Shown: positions 23,383 through 25,532 of the stretch, in pieces
How positions within the stretch are numbered: position 1 is the stretch's first letter
How the letters are laid out: every line of letters begins with the position of its first letter
DNA from: Chlamydiia bacterium
GTDB taxonomy: Bacteria; Chlamydiota; Chlamydiia; Chlamydiales; JAAKFQ01
Reading direction: 5' to 3'
DNA: 64,000 nucleotides
Assembly: GCA_041688145.1 (NCBI GenBank)
Contig: JBDNIV010000040.1
Span: forward strand, 1,742 to 65,741
Translations under genes and position numbers: made by a program
The notes under the pieces: model-generated
Told to the model about the DNA's origin: nothing
Seen by the model: the letters and a program-made list of their open reading frames with translations, nothing else
Databases searched by the model: none

Positions 23383-24510
23383 GTGAAAAAAAAACTTACA
23401 TTTTTCCTCTTTGCAGCAGAGCCTAGTGGCGATGCCCACGGATCGACTCTGATAGAAGCTCTTAAGCATCAATATTCTGAGGCTGAGTTCATAGGAACAG
23501 GAGGACCTAAAATGCGTGAAGAAGGTCTAAATGGCCCAATTCCCATGGAGTCTTTTTGTGTGATGGGGATTGGTGATGTCCTAAAAAACTTACCCAAACT
23601 CTACGCTCTATTCAAGACCACAAAAAGGCATATCTTAGAAAAAAACCCTGACTGCGTCATTCTCATCGACTACCCTGGATTTAACCTCAGGCTAATGAAA
23701 GAGCTTACAAAGTCTGGCTTTTCAGGTAAAATCGTCCACTATATAGCACCGAGCGTTTGAGCCCACGGTAAAGGGAGAATTAAAACACTTGAGCGATTTT
23801 GCAACCTCCTTTTAGTTATCTACCCCTTTGAGCCTCCCTACTTCTCATCTATGCCCTGCATCTATGTAGGCAATCCCTTAGCCTATGGCATTGAGCACGC
23901 GCCCTTTTTTGAAGGCCGGCATCACCTTGGCCTTTTTCCAGGAAGTCGACTTTCTGAAATTGAGCATAATCTACCCATCATGCTTAGGGTAATAGAAAGT
24001 CTTCAAAGGCAACTCCCCGAGGAAATGGAAAATCTAGAGATTGCACTTTCTTTAGCCCGAAAAGAGCTTTTATCTAAAATAGAAAGCCTTATCCGTGAAA
24101 GCAGCTTAAAGATAAAGATAGTCTCTCCTGAAGAAGCGCATCGCCTAATGTACACTTCAAAAGTAGCTCTTGCTACTTCAGGAACAGTCACCCTAGAACT
24201 TGCCCTTAGAAAAACGCCAAGCGTTGTTATCTATAAAGTACCGAAGCTCTTTTTCTATATAGGCAAGTATATTGCCCGTATCAAACTGCCTTTCTACTGT
24301 ATTGTGAATATCTTACTCAAACGCGAAGCCTTTGCTGAATTCTTCGATAAAGAACTCGATGAAAAACTAATTATAGAAAGCGCAAAAAAAGCACTTGAAA
24401 AACCAAAGTCTTTTGAAAAGGACTTTGAAGAGCTCGAAGAGCTCATGGGAGGGAATGATCCCGCAAAAAAAGCAGCCCAAGAAATTGGGCTGCTTTTACA
24501 AGTAGAGTGA
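23383..24510 (+). pseudogene. lpxB: Lipid-A-disaccharide synthase interrupted by one in-frame TGA (23758-23760) at the conserved Trp; either a pseudogene or readthrough-dependent
   Basis: Tracked ORFs 23383-23760 and 23851-24510 share one frame. LpxB homology continues across the stop: ...VHYIAPSV[TGA]AHGKGRIKTLERFCNLLLVIYPFEPPYF... versus the LpxB motif PSVWAWR...LPFE. The rest of the gene is intact. Confidence 0.85.
24464..24506. repeat. Direct-repeat copy A (contains bidirectional terminator hairpin GCAGCCCA-AGAAAT-TGGGCTGC); overlaps the last 14 codons of lpxB
   Basis: CAAAAAAAGCAGCCCAAGAAATTGGGCTGCTTTTACAAGTAGA. 39 of 43 positions are identical to copy B at 25489-25532. Confidence 0.8.
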
Positions 24511-24553
24511 TAGCAGAACAAGCCCTATATCAGTCTCTAGGTAGTGCCAAATA

Positions 24554-25405
24554 CTAAGTAAGATTAAAATCTTTGACCCAAGGCAAGAGCTCTTCAAGTT
24601 TACTTCTAGGGATTTTTTTTAAAAGAAGGCGCAGCTCATCAGAAAGTGTCAATTCCGGTGATTCCTCACTAGGCTCTTCTCCTCGAAGAAATCGAGCCAT
24701 ATTTTCGTCATCAGGATGGAATCCAAGCTCAAAAGCAAGTACATCATTGGGCAATTGAACCAAGGGGCCTAGCTGAGTTTTTTTACCCTGATCACATGCT
24801 ATGTTTAATTCATTATAATCTAGACCAGCGCTTTGGAATAGATCATGAAAATGGTCAATTCTAGGCCGCTCATCCCATTCATCATTAAATTTAAACTCCT
24901 CTTCTGCAGGATAAACTATTTGAAGCCTAAGAGCTATCAAAGCAATGTGGCAGATAAGCCAGTCATAGCCTTTGTTTTTTTTCATGCTTTGAATGTTTAG
25001 TAAACAAAGCCCATATTGCTGGTGAATTGCAGGACTCATAGACAAAAGAACAGCCTCAGAACGCTCAATTTTTTCATCAAAAATGGGGCGAGCTAATTTA
25101 TTTAAACGTGAAAGCATTGCAATACTATTAGCCTCTACTGAAGGCTCTGGTAGAATATTTAAAAATCTAGAATATACATAGCTCTTATCTTTCAAAAATT
25201 CTAGGCGATCTTTAGTTATATTACGTATTGTCCTACATGTCTGACTAAATTTTACCCCCTCCTCTACTGGCAAGCATGTTATTATACGCCCTATAATTTC
25301 AGTTGGGAGTGATAGTATCCCAAAAGAAGGTTTTGAAGGTGTGCCTAATAGCACCTGCCCTGGCACCTGCAAAGGACGTCTTTCTAAAGATAAATCGACA
25401 CTCAT
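24554..25405 (-). CDS. F-box domain protein (eukaryote-like, candidate secreted effector)
   Basis: F-box signature LSLPTEIIGRIITCLPVEEGVKFSQTCRTIRNI near the N-terminus. The rest has no recognisable domain. AT-rich upstream region. Confidence 0.75.
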   Translation of the reverse strand: MSVDLSLERRPLQVPGQVLLGTPSKPSFGILSLPTEIIGRIITCLPVEEGVKFSQTCRTIRNITKDRLEFLKDKSYVYSRFLNILPEPSVEANSIAMLSRLNKLARPIFDEKIERSEAVLLSMSPAIHQQYGLCLLNIQSMKKNKGYDWLICHIALIALRLQIVYPAEEEFKFNDEWDERPRIDHFHDLFQSAGLDYNELNIACDQGKKTQLGPLVQLPNDVLAFELGFHPDDENMARFLRGEEPSEESPELTLSDELRLLLKKIPRSKLEELLPWVKDFNLT

Positions 25406-25462
25406 AAAGAAATATCCATATAATTTTCAGTTCATTTTAGATTAAATTTAATTAAATTGATA

Positions 25463-25491
25463 ATTATAAAAAACAAAATTAGCAAGCACAA
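25463..25491 (-). promoter_or_regulatory. Candidate promoter of the F-box gene (TTGTGC-17-TATAAT on minus strand)
   Basis: Hexamers read from the reverse complement. The -35 lies at the edge of repeat copy B. Confidence 0.3.
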
Positions 25492-25532
25492 AAAAAAGCA
25501 GCCCAAAAAACTGAGCTGCCTTTACAAGTAGA
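25489..25532. repeat. Direct-repeat copy B (degenerate copy of the terminator hairpin; serves as the rpmF terminator on the minus strand)
   Basis: CAAAAAAAAGCAGCCCAAAAAACTGAGCTGCCTTTACAAGTAGA. The stem has one mismatch. The A8 run becomes a T8 tract on the minus strand, 15 nt past the rpmF stop. Confidence 0.8.

Follow-up and report, generated by a model that had tools for sequence, protein, structure and literature searches.

The convergent genes lpxB and rpmF of an uncultured Chlamydiia bacterium (GenBank assembly GCA_041688145.1, contig JBDNIV010000040.1) are separated by a single orphan open reading frame (ORF) with an F-box-like motif, and this ORF is bracketed by two copies, here called A and B, of a direct repeat that contains a hairpin (Table 1). 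We analysed the 64-kb stretch of DNA that holds this junction (64,000 nucleotides (nt), positions 1,742 to 65,741 of the contig; hereafter the window) and compared it with contigs from related organisms. A sequence-only reading had taken the arrangement for an insertion scar, left when an effector cassette entered an ancestral lpxB-rpmF junction and duplicated its terminator. The relatives bear out the insertion and the duplication, with a single repeat copy and no intervening gene in the closest of them, and they move the site from an intergenic position to the inside of the lpxB reading frame. We conclude, with a probability of roughly 0.78, that a 984-nt segment was inserted at the lpxB/rpmF junction, that 43 nt were duplicated, and that each of the three transcription units at the junction has kept a terminator.

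Table 1. Features at the lpxB/rpmF junction, with positions in the window; L024, L014 and L019-L023 are contigs from relatives (see text).
Feature	Position	Strand	Description or basis
lpxB, lipid-A-disaccharide synthase	23383-24510	+	Pfam PF02684 on both halves
Repeat copy A	24464-24506	.	C, A7 and a perfect 13-bp stem with a 4-nt loop (24468-24497), then ACAAGTAGA
Inserted segment, 984 nt	24507-25490	-	blastn block boundaries; absent from L024, L014 and L019-L023
Orphan ORF, 283 amino acids (aa)	24554-25405	-	F-box-like motif (LSLPTEIIGRIITCLPVEEGVKFSQTCRTIRNI) at residues 30-67; Pfam
AT-rich region upstream of the F-box-like ORF, 83 nt	25406-25488	-	15.7% GC; composition
Repeat copy B	25489-25532	.	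Hairpin 25494-25523; lpxB tail, displaced and no longer coding
Relic of the original lpxB end	25531-25539	+	GAT CTG TAG (D, L, stop); orthologous to GAT CTA TAA in L024
rpmF, ribosomal protein L32, last gene of the yceD-rpmF unit	25547-25744	-	Pfam PF01783, 68.2 bits
yceD-like gene, upstream of rpmF	25851-26399	-	Pfam PF02620, 28.5 bits, under cutoff; neighbour conserved in all relatives
RNase G (rng)	26487-28049	+	Pfam

In a scan of the whole window for direct repeats of 28 nt or more, no pair but copies A and B reached 90% identity. A repeat search aligned 24465-24506 with 25491-25532 as a 42-nt direct repeat, identical at 38 of 42 positions (90%); a C precedes both copies (24464 and 25489), and the A-run is 7 nt long in copy A and 8 nt in copy B. 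These values reproduce the earlier hand alignment, which had counted 39 matches in 43 positions plus a 1-nt A-run indel (38 of 42 ungapped, and the shared C). In either copy an A-run leads into a 13-bp stem capped by a 4-nt loop, and a T-run and ACAAGTAGA follow; the hairpin pattern, with up to three mismatches allowed, matched only these two sites in the window (none expected, from 100 shuffles). The likeness between the copies runs 9 nt past the hairpin into the lpxB coding sequence, and the longest exact stretch common to both is 16 nt.

Copy A overlaps the last 14 codons of lpxB, as had been stated; it encodes the tail KKAAQEIGLLLQV(E), and its hairpin lies in a non-conserved C-terminal part of LpxB. 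The last codon and the stop of the window's lpxB are GAG TGA, and the insert supplies bases 24507-24510, so that LpxB ends QVE*. From the end of copy B onward, positions 25525-25539 read CAA GTA GAT CTG TAG, next to CAA GTA GAT CTA TAA (QVDL*) at the end of lpxB in the closest relative, and copy B translated in the old lpxB frame gives KKAAQKTELPLQVDL.

This closest relative, L024, is a 45-kb contig from Logan (SRR24908268) with 91.5% DNA identity to the window over about 20 kb. It is collinear with the window in two blocks (L024 2-9046 with window 15462-24506, and L024 9005-15985 with window 25491-32472); its single copy of the 42 nt, at 9005-9046, belongs to both blocks, lpxB runs straight into rpmF, and window positions 24507-25490 (984 nt) are not present. 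The flanks to the left and right of the insert match L024 equally well, at 87-95% per 200 nt, which argues against recombinational import of one flank, and we rejected that reading. In a JGI contig (L014), whose LpxB is 77% identical, a single hairpin lies within the lpxB tail, and rpmF comes 32 nt past the lpxB stop. In five further contigs (L019-L023; LpxB about 51% and DNA about 70% identical), lpxB is followed by about 265 bp and then by yceD, and the F-box gene is absent; across L014 and L019-L023 the gap from lpxB to yceD is about 265-310 bp. Alignment of relatives that lack the gene, the check proposed at the outset, therefore supports an insertion, with all of these contigs free of the insert. 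A kinship of the 47 nt next to copy A with the longer spacer of L014 (GTGAT..TCAGTCT.TAGG) was considered and rejected (local alignment, p of about 0.065 against shuffles and 0.069 against window segments).

Copy A agrees with both L024 and L014 at all four positions at which the copies differ, which makes copy A ancestral and copy B derived. All five changes, four substitutions and one extra A, are thus in copy B. Copy A differs from L024 at 1 of 42 positions, with 8.5% divergence genome-wide, and is constrained by both its coding role and its hairpin.

The simplest history would be one insertion on the branch of the window. Fourfold-degenerate sites differ between the window and L024 at p = 0.184, or about 0.1 per lineage, and copy B has changed at 0.095 per site, so the duplication appears about as old as the split and carries nearly the whole neutral divergence of one lineage. 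The gene could have been inserted, with its duplication, before that split and then lost from L024 by precise recombination between A and B, leaving a secondary empty site; a crossover in the shared TTTACAAGTAGA would restore exactly the L024 sequence, and the fully host-like codon usage of the ORF also fits an older gene. Such a history, however, takes two events rather than one, the confidence interval on four substitutions is very wide, and L014 and the five contigs L019-L023, likewise without the gene, still require an insertion with duplication. We regard loss in L024 as unlikely. As L014 and L019-L023 root the empty state, insertion with duplication occurred either way.

More distant relatives also differ at this junction. 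Named relatives of the window's LpxB come only from Protochlamydia, Parachlamydiaceae and Chlamydiales (42-44% identity), and the window shares the pcnB...lpxB...rpmF-yceD-rng neighbourhood with Protochlamydia sp. R18. There (L027, 5154-6893), a DUF374 gene and plsX lie between lpxB and rpmF. With these two genes in the lpxB-rpmF interval of Protochlamydia, and nothing or the F-box-like ORF in the clade of the window, the content of the junction has been remodelled more than once among chlamydiae. In L019 (about 7125-7154) and L020 (about 7131-7161), a hairpin of unrelated sequence, AAAAAAGCGCTCAAACGATGTGAGCGCTTT, occupies the same place in the non-conserved LpxB tail and folds at about -14 to -15 kcal/mol on both strands (RNAfold). 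Placement of a terminator inside the coding end of lpxB appears to be conserved in the architecture of this convergent junction, and the presence of a different hairpin in L019 and L020 suggests that the position of the terminator in the lpxB tail may itself be under selection.

The structure is not peculiar to one assembly. Three assemblies, the window and those from ENA (L001) and Logan (L002), are identical across both copies and agree base for base through both junctions, and a fourth contig with different single-nucleotide polymorphisms (L015, the same as L018) includes copy A together with the ORF's 3' end, which places that junction in another haplotype or sample. A metagenomic contig could conceivably be chimeric, joined at a repeated k-mer, and the supporting assemblies may come from related samples. 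The copies share at most 16 exact bases, though, far under the k of an assembler, which makes a k-mer misjoin unlikely, and the relic of the lpxB stop expected from a true insertion is present after copy B; together with the agreement among the contigs, this leaves an assembly artefact barely credible.

Coincidence between members of a dispersed family was also weighed. The motif occurs twice in the 64-kb window and once each in L024 (21.5 kb) and L014, with no further copies in these sequences. A scan of GTDB representative genomes, a collection that does not include the source genome, matched 11 unrelated terminators in Bacteroidota, Firmicutes and others, and a scan of JGI metagenome contigs, itself a weak negative, returned the unrelated L016 (after an hsp20 gene) and L017 (high-GC) together with L018, which is copy A from the same organism. 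Plasmids gave no match to the locus (megablast). The idea that A and B are chance neighbours from a REP-like family or a family of terminator repeats gains from the extent of the search, which took in 64 kb of the source genome and homologous regions of relatives, the source genome being in neither scanned collection. It loses by the few copies found, by a likeness that extends 9 nt beyond the hairpin into coding sequence, by the orthology of the relatives' single copy to both window copies, and by the unrelated nature of the collection matches other than L018. We judge it very improbable.

The lpxB gene of the window has an in-frame TGA at 23758-23760, where all homologues have a conserved Trp (APSVWAHGK). 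In another haplotype of this organism (L015/L018, P0002) the codon is TGG and the 375-aa LpxB is intact, with two further base differences within 60 nt (23702 and 23708; MKELTKSG versus MKALRKSG). In the public annotation the window's lpxB is split into products of 125 and 219 aa (P0126 and P0127). The TGA may reflect a strain-level pseudogene, a consensus error in the metagenome-assembled genome, or read-through.

Of the 984 nt of the insert, 852 form the ORF, 47 lie past its stop codon and 85, very rich in AT, lie upstream of it. The initial description of the 982 nt between the copies, as holding only the F-box ORF and an AT-rich upstream region, is correct once those 47 nt are added. Neither blastn nor tblastn found similarity of DNA or protein between the insert and the rest of the window or the relatives' loci. 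Upstream of the ORF, a sigma-70-like match (TTATCA-18-TAAAAT, 25463->25434, minus strand) is a consensus match only and may serve as a promoter.

By its length and codon statistics the ORF is real and looks like a resident coding gene. Its stop-free run is 290 codons, compared with a mean of 73 and a maximum of 176 in shuffles, and GC at the first, second and third codon positions is 0.53, 0.34 and 0.28. The third-position value (GC3) is the lowest of 43 ORFs (z = -2.2), and overall GC is also low (z = -1.8), while synonymous codon usage is typical of the host (z = +0.8). The proposed comparison of GC and codon usage with the flanks thus has a divided outcome, low GC3 with host-like usage, and we dropped composition as proof of a foreign origin; it is suggestive at most.

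As for the product, the ORF matches PF00646 (F-box) with 24.2 bits (cutoff 20.5, E 3e-5) and PF12937 with 24.1 bits, just under the cutoff of 24.3, and a Pfam search recognised no domain in the C-terminal 215 aa. F-box proteins have an F-box of about 40-50 aa (LPxE...), bind Skp1 and recognise substrates through a C-terminal domain such as LRR, WD40 or Kelch. Homologue searches returned only the ORF itself, both among 5.8e9 clustered proteins (word-indexed search) and among 1.84e9 representatives (full HMMER); there was no PDB match (phmmer), no NCBIfam match and no paralogue within the window. A single-sequence AlphaFold model was unusable (predicted local distance difference test (pLDDT) 34.7). 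One profile match, and the abundance of F-box genes in amoeba-associated chlamydiae (PMC4209131), suggest that the gene may be expressed as an F-box effector. In Parachlamydiaceae, the 'eukaryote-like' F-box and BTB families evolve by birth and death, with tandem duplication and many paralogues (Domman et al. 2014, PMC4209131). Our ORF resembles their members as a lineage-specific F-box-type gene, present in one species and absent from its closest relative, and differs from them in standing alone between core genes with no detectable paralogue or homologue.

The changes in copy B bear on how the two hairpins would work. Three of them lie in the stem and are transitions, which produce C.A mismatches in plus-strand RNA and G.U pairs in minus-strand RNA. 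RNAfold gives -21.5 kcal/mol (plus) and -23.0 kcal/mol (minus) for copy A, and -9.2 kcal/mol (plus) and -18.8 kcal/mol (minus) for copy B. Viewed as an intrinsic-terminator stem, A is a perfect 13 bp, and B has 13 pairs on the minus strand, three of them G.U, and is disrupted on the plus strand. The U-tract 3' of the stem is longer in minus-strand RNA, with 7 U for copy A and 8 U for copy B, than in plus-strand RNA, where copy A has 4 U and copy B has 3 U. Hairpin A overlaps the lpxB 3' end and lies 56 nt past the stop of the F-box ORF; the end of hairpin B is 23 nt past the rpmF stop. A consensus terminator scan made a call at copy B, on the minus strand only. Both copies had been described as bidirectional terminators, and this survives for copy A, which folds both ways, but not for copy B, whose predicted folding favours the minus strand alone. 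Copy A is predicted to terminate plus-strand transcripts of lpxB and minus-strand transcripts of the F-box ORF. Copy B is predicted to act as a minus-strand-only terminator of yceD-rpmF, which would shield the F-box ORF from read-through. That the strand asymmetry of copy B marks a division of labour, with a duplicated terminator subfunctionalised, is suggestive only.

On the insertion reading, a 984-nt segment with one promoter-bearing orphan gene, whose product has an N-terminal F-box-like motif, entered lpxB at its convergent junction with rpmF in the lineage of this organism, leaving the last two codons and the stop beyond it. The 43 nt that directly precede the point of entry were duplicated in the event; they are the lpxB tail with the only intrinsic-terminator hairpin of the junction. 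Copy A, unchanged, still codes for the LpxB tail and would stop both the plus-strand transcript of lpxB and the minus-strand transcript of the new gene. Copy B, made of the old lpxB tail and the old stop, and now non-coding, would end yceD-rpmF on the minus strand and block read-through from the ribosomal operon into the new gene; not needed on the plus strand, it has drifted to a hairpin predicted to fold well in minus-strand RNA only. The comparison shows the insertion with its exact boundaries, the duplication, the direction in which the copies changed and the strand asymmetry of their predicted folding, while transcription termination at the hairpins and the way in which the duplication arose are inferred. 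The starting point may have been a break or replication stall at the palindromic terminator, whose repair took up foreign DNA and copied the 43 nt a second time, either through template switching or when a long staggered break was filled in. In-situ repair of this kind is our preferred mechanism for the duplication, tentatively and at slightly less than even odds; two-step histories are a further alternative.

Integrative elements, such as phages and integrative and conjugative elements, leave attL and attR sites at the 3' ends of tRNA, tmRNA and protein genes. The locus resembles such sites in its flanking repeats of tens of bases, in the regenerated 3' end of the gene and in the old end that remains on the far side of the insert; it differs in having no integrase, an insert of about 1 kb with a single gene, and a repeat that is a terminator hairpin seemingly reused functionally. 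Copies A and B could be the attL and attR of a site-specific element, or the outcome of a Campbell-type single crossover of a circle that carried a hairpin copy and replaced the lpxB 3' end, with the F-box gene as a remnant of the element or as the whole cassette. The direct repeats and an element-supplied lpxB stop fit this account, and so do the differences between the copies, which are all in copy B and all left of position 31, as after a crossover in the last 12 nt of non-identical sites, a pattern that is not statistically significant. On the other side, Pfam found no recombinase of a genomic island in the insert, and an 852-nt ORF leaves no room for one in 984 nt; both flanks are core genes collinear with L024. 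The donor would also need a 43-nt copy of a lineage-specific lpxB tail (the hairpin of L019 and L020 differs), which pushes the origin of the duplication back by one step, and the two collection scans held no related hairpin-bearing cassette. We find this origin doubtful.

Transposons and insertion sequences typically produce target-site duplications of 2-14 bp. They share with the locus a target sequence directly duplicated on both sides of the insert, and they differ from it in that the duplication here is 43 nt and the insert has no transposase; a repeat search found no terminal inverted repeats at the insert ends. On these three grounds we ruled out this class of insertion. Integron cassettes have attC with RYYYAAC ... 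GTTRRRY core sites, a promoterless ORF and intI in the vicinity. An integron cassette was also rejected, as the 43-mer has no GTT core and the ORF has its own AT-rich promoter-like region. No intI was seen in the collinear surroundings of the insert, the whole window not having been scanned for intI.

The closest functional analogue is the promoter-early stem-loop (PeSL) cassettes of T4-type phages, which are multi-copy, occur in hyperplastic regions and have been shown to form mini-circles (Arbiol et al. 2010, PMC2839356; PMC4122927). In both cases an orphan gene is bracketed by direct repeats with a terminator stem-loop and an adjoining promoter, and presence or absence between close relatives maps exactly to the repeats, at which recombination could excise or insert the gene. 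The locus differs in that it has two copies, on a bacterial chromosome and derived from the coding tail of a core gene, with no sign of circles or of other loci; a motif that recurs at many loci beside different orphan genes defines PeSL, and in the sequence searched we found it at one. A search of the literature for 'terminator duplication' found nothing relevant. Should the terminator hairpin itself be a recombination site, units of promoter, orphan effector ORF and hairpin would move as small circles into look-alike terminators, and the restriction of all differences to copy B, left of position 31, would fit a crossover between donor and target. We hold this to be a long shot; if true, chlamydia-like bacteria would have a chromosomal cassette system, PeSL- or integron-like, for genes of host interaction.

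Several points weigh against our interpretation of the locus as an insertion with a duplicated and reused terminator. The F-box match is borderline, below the PF12937 cutoff, and the ORF has a model pLDDT of 34.7 and no homologues. The search for further copies covered about 64 kb of the source genome. Copy A, with 4 U on the plus strand, went uncalled by the consensus scan on either strand, a miss that we read as the maximal stem absorbing the U-run. Three stem changes that all favour the minus strand have a chance of about 1 in 8 if all are transitions. Finally, the changes in copy B (4 of 42, or 0.095) are close to the neutral divergence per lineage, and L024 could have lost the gene by recombination of A with B.

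Elsewhere in the window, only one other spot is non-collinear with L024 (window 32372-33345, L024 15885-16950). Two hypothetical proteins with PMD(L/I)DSP-type proline-rich repeats are encoded there side by side and evolve very fast: DNA identity is about 72% over part of them, with 91% in the flanks, and their lengths are 147 versus 66 aa and 162 versus 223 aa. The region 21365-22581 is homologous to pcnB (poly(A) polymerase). Its first canonical start is at 21718, and about 350 nt before that start are still homologous and in frame; ATG, GTG and TTG are absent from this stretch, and the gene call in L024 is also 287 aa. The gene may have an unusual start codon or an N-terminal truncation. 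Two minus-strand genes are possible further host-interaction genes, one for a Fic-domain protein (7115-8266; NCBIfam Fic adenylyltransferase, 168.8 bits, under the equivalog cutoff) and one for a protein with a filamentous-haemagglutinin N-terminal domain (37054-38418; TIGR01901, 66.3 bits). The adjacent ORFs of 408 and 409 aa at 14039-15265 and 15267-16496 are a tandem paralogous pair; their DNA has stretches (repeat families D1 and D2) that recur about 1215 nt apart with 72-73% identity.

The locus records one insertion, in a scar that is resolved in detail and of a general kind already known. As a single event it establishes no new principle; it provides a worked example and a search template, namely orphan genes flanked by a duplicated terminator of a neighbour. 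Gain of eukaryote-like genes is poorly documented at base-pair level in obligate intracellular bacteria with few mobile elements, and this locus offers an exact before-and-after pair, in which the window has the site occupied and L024 and L014 have it empty. A new gene can enter a convergent junction of core genes with neither neighbour broken. Copying of the shared terminator in the same event would leave the newcomer transcriptionally insulated from the ribosomal-protein operon, and the terminator copy freed in this way may drift from a two-way to a one-way hairpin.

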